DNA from: Parcubacteria group bacterium
GTDB taxonomy: Bacteria; Patescibacteriota; Minisyncoccia; Moranbacterales; UBA2206
DNA length: 64,000 nucleotides
Assembly (NCBI GenBank): GCA_041659505.1
Contig: JBAZYF010000001.1
Coordinates: 502,712-566,711, forward strand
Direction of reading: 5' to 3'
The stretch's first letter is position 1. The number at the start of each line of letters is the position of its first letter. Shown one piece after another: positions 33,019 through 64,000 of this stretch. A program made the translations under genes and the position numbers. The notes beneath the pieces are model-generated. The model was not told the origin of the DNA. It did no database searches and saw only the letters and a list, made by a program, of their open reading frames with translations.

Positions 33019-33019
33019 A

Positions 33020-39481: not shown

Positions 39482-39495
39482 ATTTAAATTCTTGA

Positions 39496-40095: not shown

Positions 40096-40137
40096 ATTTT
40101 TATTATATCATGTGAATAAGATGTGCACAAGAACATC

Positions 40138-40166
40138 TTGACCTGTTCGGGTATTTGTTCTATACT
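40138..40166 (+). promoter_or_regulatory. sigma70-like promoter TTGACC-N17-TATACT driving the CBASS-like operon; overlapped by dyad symmetries (AGATGT-N8-ACATCT, GAACA-N8-TGTTC at 40119-40148)
   Basis: hexamers and spacing seen directly; palindromes overlap the -35. Confidence 0.45.
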
Positions 40167-40200
40167 CCCAATATAACACATTTTTAAGTTCTGTGTAAAT

Positions 40201-41376
40201 ATGACAAAAAAACTAGGAGATAAAAATAAAATCAACGCTATTACAGAGACAACGCGTTCAATAAACAATGAAACTAAACTGCTTCTTGCTGTCAAATCAG
40301 GCGGACGCTGTGAGTTTTTCGGCTGTAATGACTATCTTTTTTCAGATAAAATAACGAAAAAAAATATCAAATGGGGCGAGTTTGCTCACATTTATGCGTT
40401 TAAGGAAGATGGCCCAAGAGGAAACAAAAAATTACGACCAGATAATATCAACGACGTTGATAATTTGATGTTATTATGCCCATCATGTCATACAAAAATT
40501 GATAAAATGAAAAATTTACCCTTTTATACTGTAGAGATTTTGCGAAAACAAAAGAAAGAGCACGAAGACCGCATAAAATTAGTATCTGGATTTAAAAACA
40601 CTAACAAGACTAAAGCTCTGGGTATGAGCGTAAGCATTGAAAATGAAGCAATCTGTGTGTCTGAAGATGAAATCACGGAAGCTTTAATGGCTGAAAGCCG
40701 ATATCAATATCAAGAAAAGCCCAACATGATTGATTTTTCCAATGTTCCTTCTGAAAACACTCAGCTTTATTGGAAATCAAAATGTAAGGATATTAATATA
40801 ATGACTGAGAAATTTTATGAGCAATTAAAAAGAGATGGCTTGGAGCATGTTTCAGTTTTTGCAATTGGTCCAATCCCATTGCTGGTATATTTGGGGTCAA
40901 AATTGGAAAACAAAATAAAGACTCAGCTTTTTCAGCGTCATCGAGACAGTGAAAGCTGGAAATGGAATGATGGCGTTGGCAAGGTCGGTTATAAGTTGAA
41001 TATTATCAATGGAAAGGACAAAAGCAAAGTAGCTTTAGTGCTTTCTTTAAGCGGTAAAATACATCAAGCTCATCTGCCAAAAAAGATTGACGGGGGTTTT
41101 TATGTTTATGAAATTACACTTGATAACCAAGAACCAAATTTTTATTTTTTGAAATCAAAAGATGATCTAGACAGATTTGGCCACATATATTCCAAAACAT
41201 TAAGTGAAATTAGAAATGGGCATCCAAAACTCAAAGAAATTCATTTATTTTCTGCCATACCAGCGCCAATCGCGGTTGTTTGTGGCAGAGCGTTGAATCG
41301 AAAGGCAGATACTTCATTCAAGATTTATAACCCAACAAATGGTGCCCAATTTAAATATGCTTTAAAAATTAATTAA
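40201..41376 (+). CDS. HNH endonuclease fused to C-terminal sensor-like domain (Cap5-like HNH-SAVED CBASS effector candidate)
   Basis: N-terminal 'CEFFGCND...HIYAF...NLMLLCPSCHTKID' HNH motif; about 250-aa C-terminal domain unassigned by eye; immediately upstream of CD-NTase. Confidence 0.45.
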   Translation: MTKKLGDKNKINAITETTRSINNETKLLLAVKSGGRCEFFGCNDYLFSDKITKKNIKWGEFAHIYAFKEDGPRGNKKLRPDNINDVDNLMLLCPSCHTKIDKMKNLPFYTVEILRKQKKEHEDRIKLVSGFKNTNKTKALGMSVSIENEAICVSEDEITEALMAESRYQYQEKPNMIDFSNVPSENTQLYWKSKCKDINIMTEKFYEQLKRDGLEHVSVFAIGPIPLLVYLGSKLENKIKTQLFQRHRDSESWKWNDGVGKVGYKLNIINGKDKSKVALVLSLSGKIHQAHLPKKIDGGFYVYEITLDNQEPNFYFLKSKDDLDRFGHIYSKTLSEIRNGHPKLKEIHLFSAIPAPIAVVCGRALNRKADTSFKIYNPTNGAQFKYALKIN

Positions 41377-41382
41377 AATAAC

Positions 41383-42285
41383 ATGAAAACACAAGAATAC
41401 CTAGAAAAAGTTTTAAAACTTCAAACATTAGATGAAAAAAGCGAGGAAATTAAGGCTCTTCGTTCAGAGCGGGATAAGGTTGAGAATCTTCTAAGAACCC
41501 ATTTTGAGGATGTTCCAATATCAATTCAATATGCTGGCTCTTACAAGAAAGGCACAATGATAAGGGAAAGTTATGATCTTGATATGACTTGTTATTTTAA
41601 TAATGGGGATGATTCTGGCGGTGCGACACTAGAAGAAATATTTTCAAATGTTCAGCAGGCCCTTGCGTCCGAATATCATGTTTACCCAAAAAGATCAGCT
41701 TTAAGACTGCAAAGTAAGGATTCTGAAAATAGGGTTGATTTTCATATTGATGTTATTCCTGGGAGATTTGTTGATGGCGATAAGGGTGATGTCTATATTT
41801 TTCAAGCGGAAGGTGAAAAAGATAGATTGAAAACCAATCTTGAAAAGCATGTAAATCATATTACTGGGAGCAAATTAATTGACACAATTCGCCTTGTAAA
41901 GCTTTGGAAGGAATTGAATCAACTAGACGCCAAAACGTTTATTATAGAATTGTTGGTGATAAAGCTTCTGGAGGATACGACAGATAGCAATGGTTTAGAT
42001 GTATGCTTTGAAAGTTTTTTAACTGAAGTTATAGAAAAAATCGACAATATAGCACTTGAAGATCCCGCAAACCCATCTGGCAATGATCTCTCTGGGATAC
42101 TAAGTGAAGGTGTTAAGGCTGGCTTGAAATCTTTAGCAGAAAAGATTTTGATTTCAATTGAGAATGAAAGGTGGAAGGATATTTTTGGAGAAGTTGAGGA
42201 GGCTGATGATGAGGAAAAAAAACGAGCAATCAACGAGGCGAGACAATCTAATTCTGTTCCAATTAATCCTTGGTGTGTCCTATGA
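41383..42285 (+). CDS. cGAS/DncV-like nucleotidyltransferase (CD-NTase / SMODS)
   Basis: 'GSYKKGTMIRESYDLDM' (GS-x10-DhD), third Asp in 'VDFHIDVIPG', 'IRLVKLWKELNQL' matching DncV 'CRFMKAWRD' helix. Confidence 0.65.
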   Translation: MKTQEYLEKVLKLQTLDEKSEEIKALRSERDKVENLLRTHFEDVPISIQYAGSYKKGTMIRESYDLDMTCYFNNGDDSGGATLEEIFSNVQQALASEYHVYPKRSALRLQSKDSENRVDFHIDVIPGRFVDGDKGDVYIFQAEGEKDRLKTNLEKHVNHITGSKLIDTIRLVKLWKELNQLDAKTFIIELLVIKLLEDTTDSNGLDVCFESFLTEVIEKIDNIALEDPANPSGNDLSGILSEGVKAGLKSLAEKILISIENERWKDIFGEVEEADDEEKKRAINEARQSNSVPINPWCVL

Positions 42286-43019
42286 AACCTTGGTTTTTAG
42301 AAAATCCGACGCTACTTGATGAACTTAAAATTCTTATTGATTTAAAATATGCTACCCTAAACACTAGCATAGAGAACGCAGTTGTTTATATTCGAGGCAC
42401 TTTATTTATTAAGAGTCTGGAGGGTAAAGAGCTGGGACGCTATAAAATAGAAATCATAATCCCAGACGATTATCCAAATTCAGCTCCGATCTTAAGAGAA
42501 ACTGGGGATAAGTTTAATAAAGTTGCAGATAGGCACTTCAATGCGATAGATAACACCGCATGTCTGTTTTTCAGAGATGCTAAATACAAGTATTTCCCAA
42601 AAGGATCAAGCATAGTTGATTTTATAGAAGGGCCAATTAAGAACTTTTTTCTTTGGCAAATAGATTATGATTTAAATGGAGGCAAATCAAGCCTGGGAGG
42701 ATTGGATCATGGTACTTTTGGATTAATTCAATTTTATAAAGAAGAACTGGGTGTAAACGATGAAGAATCGGTGTTTAGATTTCTAGTCCTTTTTGATAGC
42801 AAGGTTGTCCCGAGAGCTAAAAAATGCTTTTGCGGTAGTGGTAGCCTATTAAAAGATTGCCATATACAGAAGTTCAGAGCTTTAAAACAAAGCATACCCA
42901 GAAAAGACGCAAAAAAATCCCTAAATGAATTGAGGGATTATATGGATAGAATGCAGAGCCTAAAACAAAAATATGGAAAAGAGGCAGTAGACGGTGCAGT
43001 TAAGCAGATTAGAGGTTAA
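42282..43019 (+). CDS. E2 (UBC-fold)-like protein, candidate Cap2-type partner (type II-short CBASS)
   Basis: 'IPDDYPNSAPIL' (YPxxPP-like) then 'RHFNAIDNTACLFF' (HxN...C) resembling the E2 active-site region; ATGA start/stop overlap with CD-NTase. Confidence 0.35.
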   Translation: MKPWFLENPTLLDELKILIDLKYATLNTSIENAVVYIRGTLFIKSLEGKELGRYKIEIIIPDDYPNSAPILRETGDKFNKVADRHFNAIDNTACLFFRDAKYKYFPKGSSIVDFIEGPIKNFFLWQIDYDLNGGKSSLGGLDHGTFGLIQFYKEELGVNDEESVFRFLVLFDSKVVPRAKKCFCGSGSLLKDCHIQKFRALKQSIPRKDAKKSLNELRDYMDRMQSLKQKYGKEAVDGAVKQIRG

Positions 43020-43176
43020 AACCAGCACTTCTCTCCATAAATCCAGTTCTAACCGCATTAACTAAGTAGCTCAGATAAAAATAGTCCCTATTTAGGGGGC
43101 TATTTTTTATACCCATAAAGACAGCTCAGATTTTTTGTGGTAATATTGAAATGTAATTTAATCATAATAAAAAAAT

Positions 43177-43884
43177 ATGGAGTTTTGGCAAACAAGTATA
43201 GTATATATATTAATTTTTGCAGTTGTACTTTCAAGTGCAATATGGGCTTATATTGATGCAAATAGAATTAATTCCGAAAAATATGAGGCTTGTGGCATAG
43301 GGACTAATAAACCCTTTTGGATAGCACTAATTATTTGTTTTTTATGGATACTTGCCTTTCCAATGTATCTTATTTGGAGACAAAAAATTATTGAAGGAAA
43401 ATGTCCGCAAAAAAAAGAACTAGAAGTAAAATCAGAGAGCGAAATGCAGAATGAAAAAAAGGAAATAATTTTAAAGCCAACTGCCCTAGCTTTTATTTTA
43501 GGGATATCTATTCCGATAATTACCATGATAATGTTAGGCGAAATGAATTCTAGAGTTGTAATTGGTTTGGGAGGGTTCACCTTAACTCTCCCCTTGGCTG
43601 TTTTTTTATTTTGCTATTCAGTTTATAAATATCAAATAAAAAATGAGTTCACAATTATTAAGGGCATGATTCTGCTAATGTTTTTCATAATGATAATTAA
43701 TCTTGAGTTCCCTCGTCTTATTAGTGACGGTTCTACTGGCGATATGTCTGGGATGATGTATTTTTTATGTTCTCCTTTTGCGTTTGTGTTCGGATTGATA
43801 ATGGGGGTTTATATCATTAAAAGATTAAGATATTTAGAAAAAATTAAATATACTGCTGTTACATTTCATTCAGCAAAACAGTAG
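43177..43884 (+). CDS. polytopic membrane protein, hypothetical
   Basis: multiple TM segments; flanked by about 33-bp imperfect direct repeats (43025-43057, 43984-44016). Confidence 0.4.
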   Translation: MEFWQTSIVYILIFAVVLSSAIWAYIDANRINSEKYEACGIGTNKPFWIALIICFLWILAFPMYLIWRQKIIEGKCPQKKELEVKSESEMQNEKKEIILKPTALAFILGISIPIITMIMLGEMNSRVVIGLGGFTLTLPLAVFLFCYSVYKYQIKNEFTIIKGMILLMFFIMIINLEFPRLISDGSTGDMSGMMYFLCSPFAFVFGLIMGVYIIKRLRYLEKIKYTAVTFHSAKQ

Positions 43885-44035
43885 GGAAGAAATATTTTAA
43901 AATACCGCCAATCCTAAATTAATTTTTGATTCTACTCCAATTCAAATTTCTAAACAAATTCACTAGTAGAGATTCTAATCAATGCACTTCTCTTTAAATC
44001 CAGTCCAAATCGCTTGCACTTCCCCGCTCAATAAA

Positions 44036-51086: not shown

Positions 51087-53810
51087 ATGTTCGGAGATCC
51101 AAGCATGTCGGCAATTCCTAGCCCGGAGAAAAAAAGAATCAAATCGGAAAAAGAAATTTTAAGACCAGGTTTTTTAGAAGAACTGGATGGTCTTTCATCT
51201 TCCCAATTAGAGTTGCTGGCTAAAATTGCGATGGAAAGGCGAGATGAGAAAGTGCTGGACGAAGCAAGGGCGGAAGCTTTTCAATCTCTGGAAAAGCAAG
51301 GGATGGTTTCAAATTCACCAGAAGGGATTATGCTGGTTGATTTGGAAAAAATAAAAAGTATTACAAAATTACCAGCGAAGGAAAAAGAAACTTTTAAAAG
51401 ATCATTGGGTCCGATTCAACTCGACAAAAAGTTTGGGGGGAAGAATTTTTTTAAGGCGCTCACACTGCTTTTTAATGATCAGAAAGTGCTTGCAAAAGAA
51501 GATTATGCTGTGGGAGAGCGAGAGCCAAAAGACCTATTCTATTCCCCTAAAAACAAAGAGGAGGCATTAGATGTGGAGAAAATAAAACAGAGTCAGTTCT
51601 ATATGCTTTTGCCAGGCTTAGTGAAGGTCAATGATTGGGAAAATGTTGAAATTGGCAAAATTCCTTCAAACAAAAAAGATCCTAAAAATGGCTTGGATTA
51701 TCGCGAAGCGTTACTTGCGGTACTTATTTATCATCCAAAATATAGCAATGGTCAGCGCAATGAAAAAGACGGTAAGCTATATGTCAAAAGAAGCGATCGA
51801 GAAGGGAAATATGGAAAAATATCAGCCGAATATCTGATGAAAGAGTATGGCACAATGGGTGGATATTCTGGAATTGAAGGTGGATCGTTACAGAATGGTC
51901 GGCTATTTGTGACGAAGAATCTGCCCAATTTAGTGGCGCGTAAAATGCTTTTGTCGGATGACTTTGAGGCGCACTGGGAAACTGCGACAACAGAAAAAGA
52001 AATTGGTAGCAAGAATTTTCGCCGAAAAGGAATGACGATGTTTAATGGCGTTGCGCATACTGTCAGTAGTAGATTTTCCACTAAAGATAATAGGTTCAAG
52101 GCCTATCATTTGGCGCCAGATGTTGGTGGCGTGGTTGAAGATAGAGACGGACAGAAAAAAATGGTGGCAACTTTTAATATTTTTCAAAAAGGAACCGCGA
52201 AGAAATCAGAGAAAGGATTTTATTTGGCGGGGACGTCAATGACAAAAGCGGTGGATTTGGATAAATTTTCCGAGAGGCAAAAAAATGAAAGCGAAGAGGA
52301 GTTTCAGGCGCGAATGGAAAAAGGCAATCCGGCTAAGTTTATGATGGGAGAGGAGAATTTTGAAGAATATCTGCGTGTGAGAGAAAAACTTTCTCAGGAG
52401 GCGGGCTTTAATTTGAATAAATTACCGATAGAAAAACAAAAGGCACTCTTTGAACTTATGGAAGAAGCAGAAGGTAATGGAAGCGAAGCGCGCTTGCTCA
52501 GTTTACTTGGAGAATACAAAGACGATTGTCTGCAGACGCTTTTAGTCTTCGGGGATGATTCATCTGGGCGGGAAAATATATTCAAAATTGGCGAAATTGA
52601 TCCTAAATTGGCTTGGCCGATCTTTCGCAAGTTCAATCGGATTGCTGATTTGCTGGAGAACGCGAAAGAGAAAATCGCGCATTTTTGGCAAGATAATAAT
52701 CAATCTGGAAAAGAACAGACGGAAGAAGTTCTTCAGGGGTATCGGAAAACGGCTGATGAATATCTACAAGAATTTTCCCAGTTGGCGGAGTTAAAAAGCC
52801 AGGAATTGTGGAAAGTGCGGGAGAGCGAACTAATGCCAAAAATTGACAATTTCTCGGAAAACGTTGTACTTTGGGCAAATTCTTTTCATGTAGCACAAAA
52901 AAGAAAAGAAAGTATTCCGGGGTCAAGTTTCAAGGGAGCGCTGAAGGAATATGAAAAGGCTGAAGGGAATTTTTGGGAACAGTATGGTGCAAAGCAAAGT
53001 GTTCTATCCGGAGCGGAAGTTAATTCGAACCATCATTTGAGAGATCAAATTATTTCTGGCTATCAAAAAGAGTATGAAGAAAGAATAGAGCTAGCTGGCG
53101 GATTGGTTAGTAGTTATCTGAAAAAAATAGAAACACCGGAAAGTAATCAAGCAATGAAAGTTTTCATCCTTCAGGTTGCTGGAAAGTTGGTGGCGCATTG
53201 CCGTTTTGACGAGGAAAAAGACGGGCAAGTTTATTTTGGATCGGCCTTTGTTACAAACTATGAGCAAAGAAACTCTATCGGGCGCTATTTCCTAAATGAA
53301 GCGCTGACCTCAATGGGTGAGAAATATCGCTTGCACGCCGATTGCATTCCGAGCGAAGCCATTTGCGGTCACTATATGTCTAAACAAAATTTTGTGGTAG
53401 ACAGAATAACCGAAGATTATGCCAAATTTGGCGAGCCGTTTATTTTTCACATCACGCGTGAAAAAACTGCAGACATCAAAAAAACGTATTATCAATCAAT
53501 TGCACGCGAGCAAATAATGGAAGAATATCACGCGGGAAATTTTTCCGAAAAAGATGGGCGAATAATTTTGCGTTTTCCAATTCAGAAAAAAGTTTCTCCG
53601 GGAATGTATCCCGAAGAGATGAAAAAGCAACTCACAGAACTGATTAATGAAAAAGGCTTTGTGATGACTGGGTACTTTTTTATTGCTAGTGATGAATCAG
53701 AGAAAGAAAGAATGGTTTATTGTGCACTGGAACGATTGGATGAATCCGGAAATGACTCTGTCGGCGGAACTGGCGTGATTGGTGAGAGTTCCGAAAAAGC
53801 CTTGGAATGA
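51087..53810 (+). CDS. large hypothetical protein (907 aa)
   Basis: long ORF; possible acyltransferase-like region near C-terminus (weak); 3' end overlaps convergent TrmB-like gene by about 90 nt. Confidence 0.4.
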   Translation: MFGDPSMSAIPSPEKKRIKSEKEILRPGFLEELDGLSSSQLELLAKIAMERRDEKVLDEARAEAFQSLEKQGMVSNSPEGIMLVDLEKIKSITKLPAKEKETFKRSLGPIQLDKKFGGKNFFKALTLLFNDQKVLAKEDYAVGEREPKDLFYSPKNKEEALDVEKIKQSQFYMLLPGLVKVNDWENVEIGKIPSNKKDPKNGLDYREALLAVLIYHPKYSNGQRNEKDGKLYVKRSDREGKYGKISAEYLMKEYGTMGGYSGIEGGSLQNGRLFVTKNLPNLVARKMLLSDDFEAHWETATTEKEIGSKNFRRKGMTMFNGVAHTVSSRFSTKDNRFKAYHLAPDVGGVVEDRDGQKKMVATFNIFQKGTAKKSEKGFYLAGTSMTKAVDLDKFSERQKNESEEEFQARMEKGNPAKFMMGEENFEEYLRVREKLSQEAGFNLNKLPIEKQKALFELMEEAEGNGSEARLLSLLGEYKDDCLQTLLVFGDDSSGRENIFKIGEIDPKLAWPIFRKFNRIADLLENAKEKIAHFWQDNNQSGKEQTEEVLQGYRKTADEYLQEFSQLAELKSQELWKVRESELMPKIDNFSENVVLWANSFHVAQKRKESIPGSSFKGALKEYEKAEGNFWEQYGAKQSVLSGAEVNSNHHLRDQIISGYQKEYEERIELAGGLVSSYLKKIETPESNQAMKVFILQVAGKLVAHCRFDEEKDGQVYFGSAFVTNYEQRNSIGRYFLNEALTSMGEKYRLHADCIPSEAICGHYMSKQNFVVDRITEDYAKFGEPFIFHITREKTADIKKTYYQSIAREQIMEEYHAGNFSEKDGRIILRFPIQKKVSPGMYPEEMKKQLTELINEKGFVMTGYFFIASDESEKERMVYCALERLDESGNDSVGGTGVIGESSEKALE

Positions 53811-54550
53811 GACCAGATGAAATTGAAAAGCACTTTATTCATTTGATAGATATTTTTATCAGTAATGATCATTGAAGTGATGGCGTCGGCGGAAAGGGAG
53901 ATGTAGGCGATTTTATTGTCATAGATTTGCATAATCGAGCTAAAGGGATAGAGAGTATAGTCAACAAAGCGCGTGTCAGTTACATCGACATGATATTTTT
54001 CCAAATACTTCCGGGCAAAAGGTGAGTCAACGCAGACCATCTTTTTTTGTTTGTGCAGACGTTCTCTTTGTTTGACGTATTCCTGATTGATTTTGTCCAT
54101 ATATTTCACTACCGCCTCTACGTCGACCAGCGTGCAAATCGTTTCTTGGGCGGTCAGTGTGTCAGCCAATACCTTCCGGAGTCCCTCCTCGCCTTCATAG
54201 AAGCGTACGCCGGGCTTATTGAAGGCTAGATTGTAGTTGGTGACCAATTGAGGCATCAGTTCACCCATCGTTCTTTTGTAGTAATTGACCTTTTGGGCTT
54301 GTTCTTCCAGTCTTTCATTGATCTTATTGGGGTGTTCTACCCGAAAAATGGCTACTTTGCGGGGTTTTTCGATTTTAATGATGAGGCCTTTTTCCGACAG
54401 TTGCTCAAGCAATTTATAGACCAATCCGCGCTTATAGGCGGTTTTTTTATATATCTCACTGGCTGGCGCTTGCCCGATGCCAAGGATAAGCTCATATATT
54501 TCGGCTTCTTTGGCGGTCAAACCTGCCGCAGAGAGGATTTTTTCGTACAT
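53717..54550 (-). CDS. TrmB-family transcriptional regulator (paralog 3)
   Basis: 'LTAKEAEIYELILGIGQAPASEIYKKTAYKRGLVYKLLEQLSEKGLI' wHTH. Confidence 0.55.
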   Translation of the reverse strand: MYEKILSAAGLTAKEAEIYELILGIGQAPASEIYKKTAYKRGLVYKLLEQLSEKGLIIKIEKPRKVAIFRVEHPNKINERLEEQAQKVNYYKRTMGELMPQLVTNYNLAFNKPGVRFYEGEEGLRKVLADTLTAQETICTLVDVEAVVKYMDKINQEYVKQRERLHKQKKMVCVDSPFARKYLEKYHVDVTDTRFVDYTLYPFSSIMQIYDNKIAYISLSADAITSMIITDKNIYQMNKVLFNFIWSHSKAFSELSPITPVPPTESFPDSSNRSSAQ

Positions 54551-54598
54551 AATGGTTGTTTTGGCTTAAATTAGGTAAAAATAACTTTGTGTCATTCC

Positions 54599-54748
54599 CG
54601 CGAAGGCGGGAATCCAGGTACCCAAGGCTTTAAAAAGGGAAAAACGGGGGATAGATGGATAAAAAATAGAAGTTAGGGGATTTATAATTCGTTTTTTTGT
54701 AATTTATAACTAGTGGTGCCTGGATCCCCGCCTTCGCGGGGATGACAC
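54599..54748. mobile_element. MITE-like element family A, copy 3 (150 bp, shorter core)
   Basis: TIRs GTGTCATTCCCGCGAAGGCGGGAATCCAGG / CCTGGATCCCCGCCTTCGCGGGGATGACAC. Confidence 0.7.
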
Positions 54749-54920: not shown

Positions 54921-55348
54921 ACGCAGTCAAGATAAATCGACAAAGTTTCGAAGACATCTGACAGTAATTTTAAATCTAGAATTGTTATTAGCACTAAGGT
55001 GATTGGCGAGCCCCGCTCAACCCTGGCATGGTAGTCAGATTCAATTGAGAAAGGCAAAGCTAATCGAACCAACCTTGGCGCGATACGTCATCTAGTAACC
55101 CTACAATATCAAACCTTATCCATCGTGATGAGTGGCACAGGCTTAATCCTAAAAGATAGTAAGCTTGTCCAGTCCTTATGATCAGTCCAACTTACTAAAA
55201 TTTTAGGTAAACCGGACTTAACGAGAATTAGAGACTAGGGAAATTATGTTATTTGCCTTGCAAACCGGCACTACGAACGCCGGACATGCGAATAAAAATT
55301 TCCCCTTAATTCAAATCATTATAAAAGATAGTGGTTTGATAGAGTGAA

Positions 55349-55452
55349 GTTCTTTGAAAGAAAAGTAGTATAGTTATCACATTTTTCTCCAGTTAGTTGT
55401 TTCCATTGCGGTTGTCTTTTTTTGAAGGCAATTGCAGTGGGAATAATTAACT
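55349..55452. repeat. cassette boundary module C, copy 1 (core TTTTCTCCAGTTAGTTGTTTCCATTGCGGTTGTCT...GGCAATTGCAGTGG)
   Basis: second copy at 56872-56982, each immediately upstream of a small TM-protein gene. Confidence 0.7.
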
Positions 55453-55502
55453 GAAAACAATCAAAAAATAGCTCTGCGAAAGCGGGGAAGGAGGATGCTA
55501 TA

Positions 55503-55829
55503 ATGAAAAAAATAGTATGTACTGGTCTAAGTTTGTTTTTTCTTTTTTTGTTTGTATATGTCTTCTATACGGTGACAAAAAACACCGTCGAAGACGATGA
55601 AAGCAAAAAAAGTACCCGCTCTTTTTTGTTGGAGCGGGGATACACGAAAGATCTGTTTGAAATGTACGGCCCCCCTAACCGTATATTTCAGATCGATAGC
55701 GACCCAGAGGGTCGCTACGTATATATCTATCAGAAACAAGACGGCACGGGGAGGGCTGCCGTCATAACGGAGGTGAAATTTCTGATAAGGAAGGATGGAA
55801 AGGTTTTGTCAATAACCAATCCATTCTAG
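55503..55829 (+). CDS. small membrane-anchored hypothetical protein (108 aa)
   Basis: GGAAGGAGGA RBS; N-terminal TM. Confidence 0.5.
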   Translation: MKKIVCTGLSLFFLFLFVYVFYTVTKNTVEDDESKKSTRSFLLERGYTKDLFEMYGPPNRIFQIDSDPEGRYVYIYQKQDGTGRAAVITEVKFLIRKDGKVLSITNPF

Positions 55830-55853
55830 AAGAGCAAACAGGAAAATCCAAAC

Positions 55854-56190
55854 AATTGGTTGCCTGAAAATCCACAGGCGGAAAAGCATGGGTAAATCTC
55901 AAATTTCTTTTGTCTAGTTCTTTTTGAAAGAAACTAGATGCCAGTCCAAGTAAGGCCGAACCTTGGAAAATTGTTCTTTTAAGAAAAAACCCGCCCGACG
56001 AAAAGTCTGGCGGAAAAGTTGTAGGGGAAGTTTGTGGAAATCCTAAACGATTTCCACCTCCTCTTTCAGATCTAAACTTAGTTTAGGTTTGAAATGAGGT
56101 GGATGTTCTTTGAAAAAGTTATCAATAATATTTCTGGTTGTCATTTTAGTTTTTGAGAAAATTCAAAGATTGGAGTGGCAATCGGAAAAA
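55854..56190. repeat. module D/E, copy 1 (about 260-bp near-identical structured noncoding repeat + about 45-bp E motif)
   Basis: copy 2 at 57400-57738 near-identical; multiple perfect hairpins (GTGGAAATC..GATTTCCAC; CCGCC..GGCGG; TCTAGTT..AACTAGA). Confidence 0.75.
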
Positions 56191-56330
56191 ACCAGTCTGT
56201 CGAAATTGTAAGTGTGCGATTTTCGAAAAACAGATCGGAAAAGTTTTTTTGGATTTTCGTTGATGTGCCTAGTCAGCGCGGAGAAAGTCCCGGCCACATG
56301 GCGGTCGTAATTCTTCGAAAGGAGAAAGTT

Positions 56331-56723
56331 ATGATAATTATAGTATTTGAGTATGGCAAGAATGGTCAGTATTCCGTAAAACGCACTACTGATGTTTGCG
56401 GTGTACCGGTCCTTGCGGTGTATTGCAGGGGCAATACCCCGCCCGATATGGGAGGGCTGTACCGGTCCGCTTCTGCCGCCATCGATGTCGCCCTTTATAA
56501 TCTTTGCGAGGGCGAAAAACTCGTTCTCGTGGATGGAGCGGATCGGGTTGGATTTGATGTTAAATTCGATCAGGCGGATGTTGCTGTTAACTTTCAGAGA
56601 TTGCGGATTTTCCGTAGCACTGTCACGGGGATGGCGGAGGCCATTGCTGGTCTCTTTCATCTCAGGCGGGAACTCGGCTGGGAATCCGGTCGACCCTGTC
56701 GCGGGGGTAGTTGGGATACGTAG
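56331..56723 (+). CDS. hypothetical protein (130 aa) in GC-rich patch
   Basis: AAAGGAG RBS 7 nt upstream; chosen over overlapping minus-strand ORF 56163..56810. Confidence 0.4.
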   Translation: MIIIVFEYGKNGQYSVKRTTDVCGVPVLAVYCRGNTPPDMGGLYRSASAAIDVALYNLCEGEKLVLVDGADRVGFDVKFDQADVAVNFQRLRIFRSTVTGMAEAIAGLFHLRRELGWESGRPCRGGSWDT

Positions 56724-56750
56724 TGCGACGGTTCCCAATCGCATTAAAAA

Positions 56751-56890
56751 AACCTTGTGCTGGCAAGAATAAAAACCAGCAGATTGTGGGGATTTGGGCA
56801 GCCGCTTCATTGCCGCTACCCAATCTTTCCAAGTTCAGTATTTTTTCAAAAATAGTGAGCTTAGATGAGATTTTTGTTCTTTGGAAGAAA
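56751..56890. repeat. cassette boundary module F, copy 1 (covarying hairpin + conserved tail ...AATCTTTCCAAGTTCAGTATTTTTTCAAAAATAGTGAGCTTAGATGAGATTTTTGTTCTTTG)
   Basis: further copies 58344-58449, 61036-61145, diverged copy 62149-62295. Confidence 0.75.
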
Positions 56891-56982
56891 ATTTATTAAA
56901 GTTAGAGTATTTTTTCTCCCAGTTAGTTGTTTCCATTGCGGTTGTCTATATTTTTAGGCAATTGCAGTGGAAATAATTAACC
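56872..56982. repeat. cassette boundary module C, copy 2
   Basis: see copy 1. Confidence 0.7.
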
Positions 56983-57012
56983 AAAGAACAATTAAATAAA
57001 AAGGATAAAAAA

Positions 57013-57399
57013 ATGAGCTCACTACTAGGCTTAGCGGTGGGGGCATTTCTGGGAGTGGTTGCATCTCTGTGGTATAACCGCACCAGAAAAATGGATATCG
57101 ATCTTCCTTCTGGGAAGATCGAGGTATATTTTAAAAACTATAAAAATGTAGACGGGGAGCGGATGTGGCAAGCATCTGCTTCTCGTGGTGATAAACGGTT
57201 GGGAAGGTCGGTCGTCTTTCCTTCCCTGAAAGAGCTTAGCAAGTTCGTGGCGAAAGCCATTGAGCTCGCAAGGAAAGGCGAGGAAAAGGGATTCAAAGTG
57301 GAAACCCTTTTTCGATGGAATTATGTGGATTTTAGCCGTGAGGGTGAAAAATATCATGGCTATATCCCGACCGGAGAAATCCAAGAACACATCTCATAA
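57013..57399 (+). CDS. small membrane-anchored hypothetical protein (128 aa)
   Basis: N-terminal TM; follows module C2. Confidence 0.45.
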   Translation: MSSLLGLAVGAFLGVVASLWYNRTRKMDIDLPSGKIEVYFKNYKNVDGERMWQASASRGDKRLGRSVVFPSLKELSKFVAKAIELARKGEEKGFKVETLFRWNYVDFSREGEKYHGYIPTGEIQEHIS

Positions 57400-57738
57400 A
57401 TTGAGTTGCCTGAAAATCCACAGGCGGAAAAGCATGGGTAAATCTCAAATTTCTTTTGTCTAGTTCTTTTTGAAAGAAACTAGATGCCAGTCCAAGTAAG
57501 GCCGAACCTTGGAAAATTGTTCTTTTAAGAAAAAACCCGCCCGACGAAAAGTCTGGCGGAAAAGTTGTAGGGGAAGTTTGTGGAAATCCTAAACGATTTC
57601 CACCTCCTCTTTCAGATCTAAACTTAGTTTAGGTTTGAAATGAGGTGGATGTTCTTTGAAAGAAAATTAATATATTATTTTCTGATTGTTATCTTAGTTT
57701 TTGAGAAAATTCAAAGATTGGGATGGCAATCAGAAAAA
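57400..57738. repeat. module D/E, copy 2
   Basis: see copy 1. Confidence 0.75.
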
Positions 57739-57778
57739 CAATACAGGAACGTTGAAAAAATAAAAGGGAGAAAATGAA

Positions 57779-57952
57779 ATGCCGAATAAGAATGAGCATT
57801 TTGATCCGGAGGTAGAAAAACTCTACCAGATGTTTAAAAAGCGTCTGATGGAGGAATTATTTGTACTGTCTCCACATTTGCCAACTCTGGCAAATCTTGT
57901 GGACAAATCGGATTATCTTAAACCTATGCCCGGCGGGAAAGACCGGGGATAA
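57779..57952 (+). CDS. small hypothetical protein (57 aa), not in ORF track
   Basis: AAGGGAG RBS; follows module E2; stop 8 nt before next gene's ATG. Confidence 0.4.
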   Translation: MPNKNEHFDPEVEKLYQMFKKRLMEELFVLSPHLPTLANLVDKSDYLKPMPGGKDRG

Positions 57953-57960
57953 AGGAGGAC

Positions 57961-58197
57961 ATGATGGACGAGTTTTACAAATTGGTTAGCCTGTCTGGAT
58001 CAACCGACGTTTCCTTTCAGGAAATGTCGGATGATGGGCCAGGGGCTCCGACCAGGTATGGTCGGAAAGTGTTTGGTCGGTTCGTAAGGGTGTCAGCAAT
58101 GACACCAGGGAGATGTTGTATTACATCTCCCGTAGTCCTCCTCGCGGATGACGTTTACAACCGGCTTCACGAGTCCGGTTGCAAAACAAACGACTAA
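57961..58197 (+). CDS. small hypothetical protein (78 aa), GC-rich
   Basis: AAAGGAGGA RBS. Confidence 0.45.
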   Translation: MMDEFYKLVSLSGSTDVSFQEMSDDGPGAPTRYGRKVFGRFVRVSAMTPGRCCITSPVVLLADDVYNRLHESGCKTND

Positions 58198-58343
58198 TCC
58201 CGGTTGGCTACACAAAAAATCTCCCTCCGGAGTTTTGACCACCTCAGCAAGTCAAGTAAAAGAAAACTGAGGAGAGTAGTCACCTGACTCTAAAAATATA
58301 TCGTGGTGAGCCCAGCGGAAGCAGAGCCGCAAGTTTGTTCTTT

Positions 58344-58449
58344 ATGTGGGGTTTGGGCAGAATACTAAAAAATCTGCCCAATCTTTCCAAGTTCAGTATT
58401 TTTTCAAAAATAGTGAGCTTAGATGAGATTTTTGTTCTTTGAAAAAAAA
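58344..58449. repeat. cassette boundary module F, copy 2
   Basis: hairpin TGGGCAGA..TCTGCCCA + conserved tail. Confidence 0.75.
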
Positions 58450-58571
58450 GTAAATAAGTTTTCTATTAATTCTTGGTCAATATTTTGTGTGGCAAGTTTT
58501 TTGCTAGATGAAATATTGGCCAGGAGACGTAAAAATAAACTTGAATTCAAGGTTAGCATTAGGAGGTTTCT

Positions 58572-59513
58572 ATGAATAGTTTCAGAGAAGTCCTCTTTGG
58601 TAAAGTTGACCTTGATTCAATGGCGACGGCTTTGGTTTTGGGGATTTCTCCTGAAGATCAAAACCTACGCTCAGTTTCGGGGTCGGCTTCAGCCGAAGAG
58701 TTGAAGGACAGTGATGTCCTTTGTCTCGAGGTCGGAGGCACTGGTCGGACGACGGAAAATTGTTTTGATCATCATCCTTGTGGTGGTGAGAGAAAGATTG
58801 ATCTGTCGGCTGCCGCGCAGGCCTTGGAGCGGATGGCACGCCTTATCCACTATGTGGACGAGGTGGACCGAGGCATTCGGCATGACTGCGAGTGCCGATT
58901 TCCCTCTCTTGTTTCTCTCGTTTCTGGAATGAAATTAATTGTGAAAGAACCGGAAGAGCAAATGAGAAAGGGATTGCAGTTGATGCGGACGGTGCTGCAG
59001 TCGGGATTGGATCCATATGATTGTATGGAAAAAATTACGATTTGGATGCCGGAAGCATCCGAGTGGATTGAAGCAAAACGCCAACACGAACGGCATTTTG
59101 CAGAAGCTACTCAAAACGCCATGTGGTTTCAGACGATTACCGGGATTAAAGTAGTTGCCGTGGAAACGACATGGATTGGTGCGCCCGGGGCATTGTATGG
59201 CCTGGGGGCACATGTAGTAATCGTACTCAACCCCACGTTCGAGCAGGGCGGAAAAGTGTATCGCAAATACACAATCGCTGTGCATCGCGATTTGGGGATT
59301 AATCTGTCTTCGGCTATTTCCGAACTTAGATTGCTCGAGGATGGTTGGGGCGGACCAGCGCACGCCACGATATGCGGCTCTCCACAGGGTGTGGATAGTC
59401 AGCTATCAATGCAAACGGTGGCCGATGTGGTCACGAAAAGTTTGCAGGGCGTGAAACTAGTCAACAAAAAAGAAAGAAAGGAGGAAGAAGAATTGCTCAG
59501 GAAAGCAGCGTAG
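58572..59513 (+). CDS. divergent DHH-like protein, paralog 1 (GWGG..GSPQG family)
   Basis: AGGAGG RBS; 'CFDHHPCGGE'; C-terminal 'LLEDGWGGPAHATICGSPQGV'; about 52% GC. Confidence 0.5.
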   Translation: MNSFREVLFGKVDLDSMATALVLGISPEDQNLRSVSGSASAEELKDSDVLCLEVGGTGRTTENCFDHHPCGGERKIDLSAAAQALERMARLIHYVDEVDRGIRHDCECRFPSLVSLVSGMKLIVKEPEEQMRKGLQLMRTVLQSGLDPYDCMEKITIWMPEASEWIEAKRQHERHFAEATQNAMWFQTITGIKVVAVETTWIGAPGALYGLGAHVVIVLNPTFEQGGKVYRKYTIAVHRDLGINLSSAISELRLLEDGWGGPAHATICGSPQGVDSQLSMQTVADVVTKSLQGVKLVNKKERKEEEELLRKAA

Positions 59514-59745
59514 AAAATTTTCTCCAGCTTGAAATCGAGTAGCTAAAAATGGCGAAAGAAATTGAGTTTTGCGTCCCGGGTTAAAACTCCGCCTGGGTAA
59601 TTGAAACACGCCAATGTTGGTGGCCCAAAGGGGCAGTTGATTTCAAATCAATTTGTTTTTGATTATTTTTCACCGCAAAGTGCGGTCAAAAAACGCAACA
59701 CCTCCCATTTTCCAGGCGGAGCGCCTGGGGGGTGGGGAGAAAACC

Positions 59746-60957
59746 ATGAAATATCAGTTTGCAATTTTAGACCCCCGTCCGATTGAGGCCGCGCAAATGG
59801 CCAATAATGCAGTTTTTTCTTCGGGACGTGGGGCATTGGGAGTTGAGGTCACCGTTCCGGCTTTAGCAGCTCGGTGCAAACTGGGGAATATCGATCCCCA
59901 GCATACCGGACAGGATGATAGTTTGGCGGCCATCGAGGTCGCACTGCAGCATGTCGTCGATGTCCGTGGCGAATGCTGCGGGCATGAGCAGGAAGTTTTC
60001 TCGGATTGTGTGGAGTGTTCGCAGCCGGTGTATGAGCCGGTTGTGACGCTGGCCACTATTCGCGCCGACCTGGATTCGGTCGGGGCGATGGCTGTTCTGC
60101 TCATTCGGGCGGAATGTGAGCAGAATGATTGGGACACGTGTAATAGCGTGCCTGGGTATGGCGAGATAATACAGGAGGCGAAGGATCGGATCCGGCTTGT
60201 GGCCGAGTCTGACAAATTTGCCAGAGGCGGCTGGCCCGGTCCACGGCCGTTGCCGACGGAAGAGTCACTTTTTGACGACTCGTCCGCCTCGACCGAGTCG
60301 GACTCACGGTTGGCTCCGATGGCCGCCGCGGTTTCCGACTTCAAAATCCCGCTGGCTCAGCGGGTTGAGTGGATGAAGCGATGGCTCCTTTGGGGCGAGG
60401 AGCCGGCCGGCTACCGTGAAAAGTGGCTGGTTGAAAGAAAGGCGATCGCGCAAGCGGTTGCCAGCGGTTTCATCAAGGCTTCGGTCGCGAAGCTTTGTGG
60501 GTACTGCGGATATTACGCTGGCGTAAGTCACGTCGGCGAACTGTGCTCGCACTGCTACTGCGACGGAGGACTTGAAGTCCAGTCGATCGCGGCAGTGGTT
60601 TCCACGCACCGCGCGGCAACCAGCATCGGCTACTCATTAGCGCCGATTGTGGTGGCGCTCAATCCGGAGTTTCGGTTTGGCGGGGGTGAACCTTGTCGAA
60701 AGTTCACGGTCTGCCAGTTTACGGCAGAGTACATGGATTTACGGGCGGTGCTCGCTGAGCTTGCCGGGCTCGAGTCGGGCTGGGGAGGATCGCCAACAAT
60801 TGGCGGATCGCCCCAGGGTGTGAGCTCCATCTTGACGATTGATCAAGTCGTCGAGGTGGTGGCAAAACACCTCATCAAAAAATGTTTTTTCTGCGGAAGC
60901 TTTTTGGAAAAGCCGTACAAGGTTTGCTTTTCCTGCGGTGGAGCGCAGCCGGAATAA
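59746..60957 (+). CDS. divergent DHH-like protein, paralog 2, with C-terminal CxxC..CxxC zinc ribbon
   Basis: GGGGAGA RBS; C-terminal 'LESGWGGSPTIGGSPQGV'; about 55% GC; start set to ATG 59746 (track uses TTG 59653). Confidence 0.5.
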   Translation: MKYQFAILDPRPIEAAQMANNAVFSSGRGALGVEVTVPALAARCKLGNIDPQHTGQDDSLAAIEVALQHVVDVRGECCGHEQEVFSDCVECSQPVYEPVVTLATIRADLDSVGAMAVLLIRAECEQNDWDTCNSVPGYGEIIQEAKDRIRLVAESDKFARGGWPGPRPLPTEESLFDDSSASTESDSRLAPMAAAVSDFKIPLAQRVEWMKRWLLWGEEPAGYREKWLVERKAIAQAVASGFIKASVAKLCGYCGYYAGVSHVGELCSHCYCDGGLEVQSIAAVVSTHRAATSIGYSLAPIVVALNPEFRFGGGEPCRKFTVCQFTAEYMDLRAVLAELAGLESGWGGSPTIGGSPQGVSSILTIDQVVEVVAKHLIKKCFFCGSFLEKPYKVCFSCGGAQPE

Positions 60958-61035
60958 ATTTCTTTCGGAAAAATAGTTCTTTAACCTCTCCCAAGTCAAG
61001 GTGCGCTTGGGCATAAGAGGAAAATAGCACCAAAG

Positions 61036-61145
61036 TTGTAGGATTTTCGGGCAGTCACTTTGTTGCCGCTGCCCGATCTTTCCAAGTTCAGTATTTTTTC
61101 AAAAATAGTGGGCTTAGATGAGATTTTTGTTCTTTGAAAAAAAAT
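61036..61145. repeat. cassette boundary module F, copy 3
   Basis: hairpin CGGGCAG..CTGCCCG + conserved tail. Confidence 0.75.
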
Positions 61146-61279
61146 GAAAACCAACTATTTTTCATTGTCTTATTTGAGATAATAATTTTTTTGTTGTTTC
61201 TGATGAGGCAATGGAATAGTTGTTTTTTAATCTGCCGAACCGAAAAACGGGGAGGCAAAAATAAAAAAGGAGTACGAAA

Positions 61280-62113
61280 ATGAAAAAACAGTTATTTGTT
61301 TTGGGTGGCAATGACGGTGAGATGCAGGCAATAAAAGGTTTGTTAACTGCATTCGGGCATGCCTGGGCGCAGCCCCAGATTGGCTGGGGCGAACATTTTT
61401 ATGTGCCTGCCGAATTGGGACTGGAGATTATTGATGTCCAGATTCCTGTCGGCGATAATGGTCACGGCACAGTGTATCGTGCTGGAAAGACTTGCCAGGG
61501 AATCGATGAAGTGATATTTGTCGAATGCTCCCCAAAGGATTTTCCGGCTGATCAGGCTGTGATGGTTATCGATCATCATAATGATCGGTCGGGCGAGCCG
61601 GCTGCCATCCGGCAGATGGTTGAAAAACTGAACATTTGGTCCAGGCTTAGTTCGCTGACCCAGCGATGGGTCGAGCTGGTGGCCGCCAATGACTCCGGGT
61701 ATATCCCGGCGATGCTGGCGCTTGGTGCTACGAGTAAGGAGATTGCCCGAGTACGCTTGTCCGACCGCAACGCTCAGGGCATTACGTCTGAGCAAGAAGT
61801 GGAAGCCGAGAGAGCAGTCGTGGGGGCCGAGGTTGTTGGAAAGTTGACCATCGTAAGGATGGCACATTCCAAGACAGCAACGGTCGCCGACAGACTTTTC
61901 GGCAAAGCCGACCAGCTCCTCATCCTCTCTGGCGACGGAGAGGTGAATTTCTTTGGGAACGGGGCGATCTGCTCCGAGCTTAAGGCAAAATTTGAGGGCT
62001 GGGGCGGCGGTTCCGGCTTTGGCAAGTCGGATGGCATTGGCTACTGGGGTGGTTGCCCGAACTTTGACGAAGTGTTGAGCTTCGTCAAGAGCAAGGTTAA
62101 TCCCTCTGAGTAA
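61280..62113 (+). CDS. divergent DHH-like protein, paralog 3
   Basis: AAAAGGAG RBS; 'FVLGGNDGEMQAIKGL' (motif I-like), 'VMVIDHHNDRSGE', C-terminal 'FEGWGGGSGFG'. Confidence 0.5.
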   Translation: MKKQLFVLGGNDGEMQAIKGLLTAFGHAWAQPQIGWGEHFYVPAELGLEIIDVQIPVGDNGHGTVYRAGKTCQGIDEVIFVECSPKDFPADQAVMVIDHHNDRSGEPAAIRQMVEKLNIWSRLSSLTQRWVELVAANDSGYIPAMLALGATSKEIARVRLSDRNAQGITSEQEVEAERAVVGAEVVGKLTIVRMAHSKTATVADRLFGKADQLLILSGDGEVNFFGNGAICSELKAKFEGWGGGSGFGKSDGIGYWGGCPNFDEVLSFVKSKVNPSE

Positions 62114-62148
62114 GGACGGCTACCCAATGCCCAAGCATGAAACACTAA

Positions 62149-62295
62149 CCTTGTGCTGGCAAGAATAAAAACCAGCAGATTGTAGGGGATTCGGGATTTG
62201 AGTATTGCCGTAGGGGCAAGAAAAAAATCCCGATTCTCTCCGGTACTATTTTTCTTTTGAAAAAGTAGTTCTGGATGAGGATGAGGTTCTTTGAC
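62149..62295. repeat. cassette boundary module F, diverged copy 4
   Basis: TGCTGG..CCAGCA hairpin + TCGGGATTT..AAATCCCGA hairpin + degenerate tail ending GTTCTTTGAC. Confidence 0.6.
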
Positions 62296-62420: not shown

Positions 62421-64000
62421 ATGCCAAATTTTATATGGACCGACCATGCGGACAGGGAATCTCTTCCGATTGACGCGCATCTCGCTGAGATTTTGCGTCT
62501 CACGGAAGAAAATCAGGTAATCATTGTGGAAGCGGAAACGGGCGCAGGAAAAACGACTCGGATCCCGCAGATGCTTCTGCAGGAAACGAGTCTGCCAATT
62601 CAAATGACTCAACCTCGCCGTCCGGTTGTTCGCTGGATGGCGAAAAGAATCGCCTATGAACTGAAAGATGTTCCGGGCGGTGTTGTCGGCTGGAAACTGT
62701 TTGGAGATGATCCGGTTGTGTCAAAACGGACTCGGTGTCTTTTGAAAATCGAGCAATCTTTGGCAAACTGGATCCGGCGGAAAAATCGTCTGCCGGAGGG
62801 GATTATTATTGTGGACGAGGCGCACGAGCGTCACGTTACAACCGATACCCTTTTGATTCTTCTTAAAAAACTTTTACTGGGATCGCCAAAAACGAAGGTG
62901 ATTATTACATCCGCCACGATTGATACAGAGAGATTTTCAAAGTATTTTTGGAATGCTCCGATATTAAAAATCAGCGGTCGTTGTTATCCAGTAGAAGTTC
63001 GTCCCTATCATATGGGGAGAGGGGAGCACCACAGCCAAGGCGCAATTTGCGCCGCTGAAAAAGTAGTGGACAATTTTTTGAGGCAATGTCTCCATATTCA
63101 GGACACGCACAATGAATTTTCAAGTGTGCTTGTCGAGCGTGGAACGGTTCTGGCGTTTTTTCCTGGCGAGGAGGATATCAATTCCGCTATTTCTTCTCTC
63201 GAGCGTCATTTGCATTGGCGCAAAGAAAGGGATGAGAATCTTTCTGTTGAGGTCATCACTCTTGCGAGTGAAGCCAAAAACAAAAAAGAGGGCGGAAAAG
63301 ATGCGGAAAATATTGATGCAAAATATCGCATCGAAATTTTTCCTTGTCACGGAAAACTGACACCGGCAGAACAGGATCGCAGTCAGGGACCGGACGTTGC
63401 GCCAAATACCTTGCGCGTTATCTGCACAACAGATATCGCGCGAACAAGCGCGACATTTCCCCGAGTGGTCGGGGTTATTGATTCTTTGCAAATCAAACGG
63501 CCCTTCTCTGATTACAAAGGCGTGGCTCATTTGGACAAAATCCAGGTGAGCATGGCTGAAGCGAATCAGGCCAAAGGTCGAGCAGGTCGGACGCAACCAG
63601 GATTCTACATTCCCATTTCTTTTGAAGGGGAATATGGAAGGCTGGCAATGTGGCCAGTGCCGGCGATTTTACGGGAGCCGTTGAGCTCAATCGTGTTGCA
63701 GTTTAGCGCGGCAGGAATTAGTCCGCGCGATTGTGACTATATCGATGCACCGGATCAGCAAAAGATTGATGCGACCATCAAACGGTTGCAAAAATTGGGT
63801 GCGCTGGATTCCTATGAGCAAATCACCGAAGTTGGTGAATTGCTCGTCCAGTTTCCGATTGATCCAGAAAGGGCGAAAGCTTTGATCACTGGATCGAAAT
63901 TGGGCATTTTGCCTGAGACAATAATTGCGTCGGCGTGCATTGAGCATGAGGGATTATTTTGGATCCCCAAAACTGACGCGAAAATTGAAGTCGAGCGGTG
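62421..64000 (+). CDS. ATP-dependent DEAH-box helicase (HrpA/HrpB-like), 5' partial within window (runs off end); absent from ORF track
   Basis: GAGGAG RBS; 'ETGAGKTT' (Walker A), 'VDEAHER' (motif II), 'SATID', 'QAKGRAGR' motifs; no stop through position 64000. Confidence 0.85.
   Translation, partial: MPNFIWTDHADRESLPIDAHLAEILRLTEENQVIIVEAETGAGKTTRIPQMLLQETSLPIQMTQPRRPVVRWMAKRIAYELKDVPGGVVGWKLFGDDPVVSKRTRCLLKIEQSLANWIRRKNRLPEGIIIVDEAHERHVTTDTLLILLKKLLLGSPKTKVIITSATIDTERFSKYFWNAPILKISGRCYPVEVRPYHMGRGEHHSQGAICAAEKVVDNFLRQCLHIQDTHNEFSSVLVERGTVLAFFPGEEDINSAISSLERHLHWRKERDENLSVEVITLASEAKNKKEGGKDAENIDAKYRIEIFPCHGKLTPAEQDRSQGPDVAPNTLRVICTTDIARTSATFPRVVGVIDSLQIKRPFSDYKGVAHLDKIQVSMAEANQAKGRAGRTQPGFYIPISFEGEYGRLAMWPVPAILREPLSSIVLQFSAAGISPRDCDYIDAPDQQKIDATIKRLQKLGALDSYEQITEVGELLVQFPIDPERAKALITGSKLGILPETIIASACIEHEGLFWIPKTDAKIEVER

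Follow-up and report, generated by a model that had tools for sequence, protein, structure and literature searches.

A 64,000-nt stretch of the chromosome of a Parcubacteria group bacterium, a member of the candidate phyla radiation (CPR), contains three consecutive forward-strand genes, P1 (58572–59513), P2 (59746–60957) and P3 (61280–62113). The whole stretch (contig JBAZYF010000001.1, positions 502,712 to 566,711) is referred to here as the window. P1 is the founder of an undescribed and unannotated DHH/DHHA1-like family with an intact DxD/E/DHH/D signature. We tentatively propose, with a probability that we place a little below even, that the products of all three genes are stand-alone, metal-dependent phosphodiesterases of the DHH superfamily acting on small nucleotides; the catalysis and the class of substrate are both predictions. 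Fold, motifs, the homology of P3 to NrN and the linkage of P1 relatives to CARF and cas genes favor phosphodiesterases of small signaling nucleotides as the most likely interpretation.

The three genes

The open reading frames that a sequence-only reading of the window had placed at 58572–59513, 59746–60957 and 61280–62113 are all present, and identical proteins are deposited as WC848_02595, WC848_02600 and WC848_02605 from a 656-kb Parcubacteria-group contig. The DNA is chromosomal, with IF-2, NusA, trigger factor and RNase Y encoded elsewhere in the window. Full-length homologs under purifying selection (E≤1e-3) form 47 clusters for P1, 325 for P3 and 673 for P2, and because each gene has many such homologs with strongly conserved columns we regard all three as genuine. 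The ATG at 59746 agrees with the N-termini of P2 homologs, and a longer P2 reading frame from a TTG start at 59653 is unsupported. The genes had also been described as GC-rich, and with a GC content of 0.50 (P1), 0.57 (P2) and 0.54 (P3) against 0.41 for the window and 0.42–0.48 for core genes the difference is real but moderate.

Fold and motifs of P1

P1 is a 313-aa protein with a two-domain, DHH/DHHA1-like organization and the motifs KVDLD, LEVGG, FDHH, YVDEVD and GWGGPxH. It has no match in Pfam, NCBIfam, PADLOC or PHROGs; the Pfam DHH (PF01368) and DHHA1 (PF02272) models match none of P1, P2 and P3 even at E≤1, and NCBIfam likewise gives none. Searches of PDB sequences with either the single P1 sequence or the family profile return chance matches only, interleukin-4 for example. 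The AlphaFold (AF2) model has a predicted local distance difference test score (pLDDT) of 91.9 and a predicted template modeling score (pTM) of 0.80, and its comparison with the PDB using Foldseek gives seven matches at E≤1e-3, all of them DHH-family proteins, including PAP phosphatase 8a8k (the best, 1.9e-7), the exopolyphosphatase PPX1 and RecJ/GAN. The next matches are to the DHHA1-like C-terminal domain of AlaRS (2zvf), with E-values of 1.1e-3 and 3e-3. Match probabilities in the PDB search are 0.96–1.0 and template modeling scores about 0.3, as expected of a hinged two-domain protein. The model also matches 27 viral DHH phosphohydrolases.

In the family alignment (35–40 members, as for P3) the invariant residues include K11, D13, D15, E53, D66, H67, H68, D99, W259 and G261, which we read as DHH motifs I–IV plus a GGGH-like loop, with a correspondingly predicted metal site. 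Motif II has a glutamate, E53, in place of aspartate, as in NrN, and GWGGPxH replaces GGGH. By its modeled two-domain fold and its motifs P1 is a member of the DHH/DHHA1 superfamily. A profile search of 1.84 billion representative sequences identifies 611 representatives of the P1/P2 superfamily at 50% identity.

Relationships among P1, P2 and P3

The sequence-only reading treated the three proteins as paralogs of a single family, and this does not hold: there are two families, one containing P1 and P2 and the other the NrN-type P3. P1 and P2 are related by BLASTP at E 7e-15 with 41% identity across the C-terminal 99 aa, the P1 profile recognizes the P2 sequence with 98.8% probability, and the two profiles align with 99.6% probability over the 118 columns of the C-terminal domain; from the alignment of this common domain, P1 and P2 are judged to be true paralogs. 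BLAST comparisons of P3 with P1 and P2 are not significant (best E 1.1 and 2.5), and a single paralog trio was rejected on this absence of a BLAST alignment and on a full-length profile comparison that reaches only 10% probability. When the N-domains only are compared, the P1 and P3 profiles align (probability 71.6%, E 3.5e-5) over 61 columns around motifs II–III, pairing 'CIEVGG...FDHH' of P1 with 'VFVEC...IDHH' of P3. Their C-terminal domains give no alignment at the profile level.

The DHH triad is invariant in the P1 family (D66 H67 H68) and in the P3 family (D98 H99 H100), and is lost at the collinear site of P2, as had been described. A C-terminal 'LE.GWGG....GSPQGV' block, thought to be shared by all three, is near-invariant and common to P1 and P2, but P3 has GWGG alone at a similar position; since the C-termini of P3 and P1/P2 do not align, the longer 'L..LE.GWGG....GSPQGV' is a P1/P2 signature. 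The proposed DHH/DHHA1 fold is supported for P1 by its model and for P3 by homology to NrN, and more weakly for P2, whose best match, PAP phosphatase 8a8k, has an E-value of 6.5e-3 and a probability of 0.54.

P1 relatives in type III CRISPR loci

Outside the CPR, all five of the P1-family loci looked up have either a fusion to an effector activated by cyclic oligoadenylate (cOA) or a neighboring cas or CARF gene, with two different fusion architectures represented. P0315 (1021 aa) carries CARF and HD domains after its P1-like domain (PADLOC CARF7--CARF_HD, 1.3e-30; Pfam Cas_APE2256 and HD-CE), and its gene adjoins one for a CARF-PD-(D/E)xK protein. In P0322 (975 aa) the P1-like domain is at the end of a CARF4-PD-(D/E)xK protein, encoded divergently from a complete cmr1-6 operon. 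The window P1 aligns to these two proteins along its full length, across 293 aa, with 34% and 33% identity respectively (E 7e-43 and 1e-38). Three single-domain relatives complete the set: the gene for P0047 has those for a RAMP and a Cas_APE2256 protein in its vicinity, that for P0307 is 3.5 kb from Cas1-Cas2, and that for P0316 comes immediately after Cas2 and not far from Cas6 and RT-Cas1. By analogy, the non-CPR members of the P1/P2 family have the look of quenchers of type III CRISPR signals, either built into an effector or encoded in the same operon. Fusion or adjacency to cOA-activated effectors is how Crn2 fusions and Crn4 were recognized (PMC12830947), and the ring-nuclease surveys consulted do not mention the P1-type family (PMC12409355, PMC12830947). 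Consistent adjacency or fusion to cOA effectors is found in the non-CPR clade, not at the window's own locus.

A metagenome scan of the non-CPR P1 clade covered 80 loci, 42 of them at least 6 kb long. Among those 42, local probes detect core cas neighbors in 20 and some cas- or CARF-type neighbor in 40. With strict searches, a Can2-like gene ends just upstream of the P1-like gene in 7 of 46 loci, and in 15 of 52 the gene beginning immediately downstream encodes a CARF-like N-domain; in the 10 of 52 where a sigma-54-type AAA+ module is also detected, this downstream gene encodes a sigma-54-type activator. An operon of a Can2-like CARF-nuclease, a P1-like DHH protein and an AAA+ activator of the sigma-54 type whose N-domain is CARF-like recurs in metagenomes (loci L105–L136; e.g. 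L105, 780–5321), its genes overlapping or separated by 4 nt. An apparent association with Lon protease was rejected, as drift had led the jackhmmer 'Lon' probe to a CARF-like domain.

P3 and the NrN family

P3, a 277-aa protein with the motifs GGNDGEM, VEC, IDHH and AANDSGYIP, matches NrN (PDB 9lq9) at E 1.4e-21 as a single sequence and at 6e-48 as a family profile, and in PADLOC it matches C3a116 (1.1e-45) and DHH_CorA (1.3e-31). GGxDxEM, VE, DHH and AANDxGYIP are invariant in its family. On this homology we assign P3 to the NrN family as a new member, one whose context is unusual in being free of CRISPR genes. NrN, a phosphodiesterase of the DHH family, has its gene next to that of CorA in type III-B CRISPR loci. 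Its hydrolysis is specific to the second messenger SAM-AMP, and both this degradation and immunity depend on the DHH motif (PMC10600005, PMC12255297). P3 relatives are sporadic, with 146 among 185,579 species genomes. In those of Bacteroidota type, Cmr2/Cas10 and Cmr3 adjoin in 17–18 loci; no association of P3 with CorA or type III-B cmr genes is seen in the scanned window open reading frames or in CPR-type loci.

The recurrent neighbors of CPR-type P3 homologs are DEAH/HA2 helicases (6 loci, including the window), nucleotidyltransferases with a PolyA_pol head (6 loci) and TrmB (5 loci). In the window the helicase gene (HrpA-like; 62421–63998, + strand, running off the end; Pfam DEAD, Helicase_C and HA2_N) follows P3, and members of the same helicase family adjoin P3 homologs in L001, L010, L019, L034 and L045. 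P0099, from one 3.7-Mb genome, has an NrN-like domain fused to a nucleotidyltransferase-like N-domain, of which a stand-alone homolog is encoded five genes from a CPR P3 homolog; these observations on nucleotidyltransferases are from L010 8001–9344, L009 13022–13603 and L049 5808–6827. A precomputed Pfam 'Gad2' label on P0099 was not reproduced by our own scan, and PHROG nucleotidyltransferase matches back the general fold class only. On a 235-kb IMG/VR contig (L092, 5740–6591) the distance from an NrN-like gene to one for a terminase large subunit is about 3 kb, and a head-protein-like gene is also near; the NrN-like gene is possibly a phage-borne SAM-AMP phosphodiesterase and a candidate anti-CRISPR. 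General co-location of P1 or P2 with P3 was rejected, since none of the 80 other P3 loci has either within 7 kb.

P2, a remodeled paralog

The P2 family, with a typical length of 306–340 aa, shares about 50–60% identity across CPR classes and has no match in Pfam, NCBIfam, PADLOC or PHROGs. At 403 aa the window P2 carries the motifs GxEVT, NxDPQH, RxDLD and DKFA and three Cys-rich insertions. Its C-terminal domain is almost the same as that of P1, and its N-terminal half is remodeled: the position collinear with DHH is degenerate throughout the family (FDDSS, NPWPEE and similar), and an N-terminal extension contributes the invariant G32-E34-V-T and N48-x-D50-P-Q52-H53, with R106-x-D108-L-D110 and D156-K-F invariant further along. 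The spacing from E to D is 16 residues, equal to that between motifs II and III in P3 (15 in NrN), and 'RADLDS + helix' of P2 clearly corresponds to motif I of P1, 'KVDLDS + helix'. This spacing and the placement of motif I suggest, from sequence, the motif order II-III-I-IV and a permuted DHH domain. Circular permutation is a hypothesis only at this point, since 'GIEV' of P2 aligns with 'CIEV' of P1 at E about 0.1, which is not significant. The P2 model (pLDDT 85.5) has weak fold matches, to PAP phosphatase 8a8k as noted above and to the DHHA1-like domain of AlaRS.

The zinc ribbon reported earlier in P2 is present but is really three Cys clusters, CCx9CxxC, CxxCx13CxxCxC and CxxCx10CxxC, in regions where the model has low confidence. 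They are lineage-specific, zinc-ribbon-like insertions. The three surface loops that carry them have independent Cys-rich insertions in other members of the family as well; the window P2 has all three. Two lineages, those of the window and L002, have a P1-type gene next to one of P2 type. In L002, from another CPR genome, positions 9087–11488 hold genes of P1 type and P2 type in that order, with a third and more degenerate paralog behind them, so tandem expansion of the P1/P2 family recurs.

Organization of the island

From about 55 kb onwards the window contains same-strand genes without database matches, bordered upstream by a divergent gene for a TrmB-family regulator (53717–54550, − strand; Pfam TrmB, 1.2e-9). 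The TrmB gene has the equivalent position in other CPR genomes (L004, L005, L008 and L009), where the arrangement is a large unannotated gene, TrmB on the opposite strand, and a variable array that includes P1-, P2- or P3-type genes. In L001 the order is P1 (78% identical to the window P1), an unrelated gene, P3 and helicase; the middle gene was considered as a P2 ortholog and rejected, being unrelated. The spacer between P1 and P2 (59514–59745, +) is a conserved non-coding element that folds strongly as RNA, with a z-score of −4.2 relative to shuffled sequences. It is about 90% identical to the L001 spacer at 10955–11157, even though the P1 proteins are only 78% identical and the downstream genes unrelated, and gene content thus varies between conserved spacers. 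No known Rfam RNA is found in the island, including this spacer.

Repeated elements precede many of the island genes. A 100-nt module, consisting of a hairpin plus the GTTCTTTGAAA motif (direct-repeat family D2), is present in three copies starting at 56793, 58351 and 61046, ahead of a 128-aa gene (57013–57399), P1 and P3 respectively; the copies upstream of P1 and P3 span 58351–58450 and 61046–61145, both on the + strand. A 34-nt core is exact in all three copies, where none would be expected. A degenerate copy, with a hairpin plus GTTCTTTGA (62147–62294, +; repeat families D10, D3 and D4), lies upstream of the helicase gene, and a shorter GTTCTTTGAAA(R)AAAA core is found 110–140 nt before almost every island start codon (55346–62294). 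The modules may be shared promoter or operator elements, a role suggested by their sequence and position, and they may serve as operators for the adjacent TrmB-type regulator. The proposal that each of the three genes sits in its own cassette is correct for P1 and P3, but P2 has no module between it and P1; the different conserved spacer lies there instead, and the two genes form one unit.

A perfect 257-nt duplication (55859–56115 and 57405–57661) is also present in the island, and a 34-nt inverted repeat (54589–54622 and 54715–54748; 91% complementary, arms 92 nt apart) lies between the island and the TrmB gene. A separate island of low GC content is located by tRNA-Gly at 29403–44000, 16 kb upstream. 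It contains a serine recombinase (29466–31085, −), a type II cytosine methyltransferase (38417–39481, −) and a complete short cyclic-oligonucleotide-based antiphage signaling system (CBASS) made up of a Cap5-like HNH-SAVED effector (40201–41376), a CD-NTase (41383–42285) and an E2-like protein (42270–43019).

Proposed function

Enzymes that switch off nucleotide immune signals decide between recovery and death of an infected cell, and they have been taken over by viruses as anti-CRISPRs. Crn1–4 and Csx15/16/20 make up the catalogued ring-nuclease families, to which the DHH enzymes NrN and MAD can be added. A sizeable unannotated family with a DHH/DHHA1 fold, CARF fusions and locations in type III loci is a testable candidate for a new class of signal-degrading enzyme. 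CPR bacteria are usually CRISPR-poor, and the finding that one of them keeps neighboring orphan genes from two such families raises the question of which small nucleotides a reduced symbiont needs to have destroyed.

If the three proteins are phosphodiesterases of this type, their substrates would be second messengers or the linear products of these rather than bulk nucleic acid. Outside the CPR, Csx1-Crn2 and NrN-CorA suggest by analogy that the P1 family would provide a signal-degrading 'off switch' for the CARF effectors of type III CRISPR loci. P2 would have kept the substrate-side C-terminal domain on a rebuilt N-domain, with DHH replaced by the upstream NxDPQH, and may catalyze a different chemistry or none at all. 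The three genes are here uncoupled from cas and carried in a CPR-specific variable island downstream of TrmB, where P1 (at the head of a unit that includes P2), P3 and the helicase gene each stand behind a copy of one upstream module. Three roles had been put forward from sequence alone, namely back-up nanoRNases, ring-nuclease-type regulators and anti-defense enzymes, and we infer that the second gains most, because of the NrN homology of P3 and the CARF fusions and cas neighborhoods of the P1 family.

Several observations weigh against signal degradation. No cas, CARF or CorA gene lies beside any of the CPR-type P1, P2 or P3 loci examined or among the approximately 45 window open reading frames scanned, and the co-occurrence of P1 with P3 is limited to this lineage (0/80 other P3 loci). 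The cas and CARF counts from the metagenome loci come from our own jackhmmer probes, one of them the drifted 'Lon' probe, and strict single-pass searches lower the count, with CARF-type genes in 29 of the 80 loci. The best structural match of P1, as of P2, is PAP phosphatase 8a8k, a housekeeping enzyme, and the strong conservation of the P2 family across CPR classes is more the pattern of a core function than of a gene in an arms race. These last two points argue for nucleotide turnover, in which the proteins would be CPR-specific NrnA-like nanoRNases or pAp phosphatases that recycle short oligoribonucleotides or pAp in cells without Orn that rely on nucleotide salvage, and nearby genes of RNA metabolism are in keeping with it: the DEAH/HA2 helicase, PNPase, NYN and S15 upstream in L001, and the PolyA_pol-type nucleotidyltransferases by P3 homologs. 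We nevertheless consider this plausible but rather unlikely. The genes have an accessory character in the CPR, being sporadically distributed and located in variable islands of unannotated genes, non-CPR relatives of P1 are embedded in CRISPR/CARF loci, three different tandem enzymes would be redundant, and the characterized NrN leaves pApA uncut (PMC10600005).

The trio could instead be counter-defense cargo, on or from a mobile element, quenching several immune second messengers in an anti-CRISPR or anti-CBASS manner. Viral ring nucleases and the phage SAM-AMP lyase are examples of enzymes that act in this manner, and a GC content above the surrounding genome, swappable gene content between conserved spacers, the fusion of an NrN-like domain to a phage-type nucleotidyltransferase domain, and a few homologs on IMG/VR contigs, including the NrN-like gene about 3 kb from a terminase, would all be compatible with such an origin. 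This is nonetheless quite improbable, as there is no PHROG match, the island has neither an integrase nor another mobility gene next to it, and it is syntenic on the chromosome beside TrmB in several CPR lineages; tblastn gives no match in 50,697 GenBank phage genomes, and a phage origin was rejected on that count. For P2 by itself, loss of the DHH histidines could mean a pseudoenzyme that hydrolyzes nothing and either binds nucleotides or acts as a regulatory or sponge partner of P1. The family-wide degeneracy of the collinear DHH, the weak match of the N-domain fold and the adjacency of P1-type and P2-type genes in the window and L002 point that way; on the other side, E34, D50, H53, D108, D110 and D156 are kept as invariant residues with the E-D spacing of motifs II–III in P3/NrN, so a rebuilt metal site would be possible, and we hold the pseudoenzyme to be possible but doubtful.

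Returning to the proposal that all three are phosphodiesterases of small nucleotides, a more specific form of it, on balance unlikely, is that the P1/P2 family breaks down type III signals as a hitherto unrecognized class of DHH-type, metal-dependent enzymes, and would add a fifth to the known kinds of ring nuclease or cOA phosphodiesterase. The family would have been captured by the CPR, duplicated and remodeled to give P2, and set beside an NrN-type P3 in a trio that acts independently of CRISPR and quenches more than one immune second messenger. If so, the trio could tame the cell's own CBASS or CRISPR signaling, or blunt signals met in an epibiotic lifestyle.

Comparison with known systems

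P3 has a characterized homolog in the NrN of the Bacteroides fragilis type III-B system (PDB 9lq9), with which it conserves GGxDxEM, VE, DHH and AANDxGYIP; the residue altered in the NrN variant 9lqa (E to A) corresponds to P3 E14. P3 differs from NrN in that neither CorA nor cmr is nearby and its C-terminal GWGGGSG...WGG region does not align. P3 also scores better with PADLOC C3a116 than with DHH_CorA, and its neighbors are the DEAH helicase and nucleotidyltransferases.

MAD, a DHH-DHHA1 nuclease of Sulfolobus islandicus that is associated with the membrane, degrades cA4, and together with NrN it is a precedent for DHH enzymes acting on type III signals (PMC8284326, PMC7854544). A DHH/DHHA1 protein acting on a type III second messenger is the role predicted for the P1 family. 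By its description MAD is canonical and membrane-associated, whereas P1 and P2 are soluble, have no Pfam DHH/DHHA1 match and have E rather than D in motif II. P1 resembles NrnA, PAP phosphatase, PPX1 and RecJ in its two-domain fold, DxD, DHH, D and a Gly-rich GGGH-like loop; it and P2 are set apart from these enzymes by falling below sequence detection in Pfam, NCBIfam and the PDB and by their own GWGGPxH...GSPxG block, and P2 also by its rearranged N-domain. Finally, although the degrading module of P0315 and P0322 is DHH-like, rather than CARF, DUF1874, Csx3 or Crn4, and the window genes are unfused, these two proteins join a degrading enzyme to a signal-activated effector just as the Csx1-Crn2 ('fuse to defuse') and NrN-CorA fusions do.

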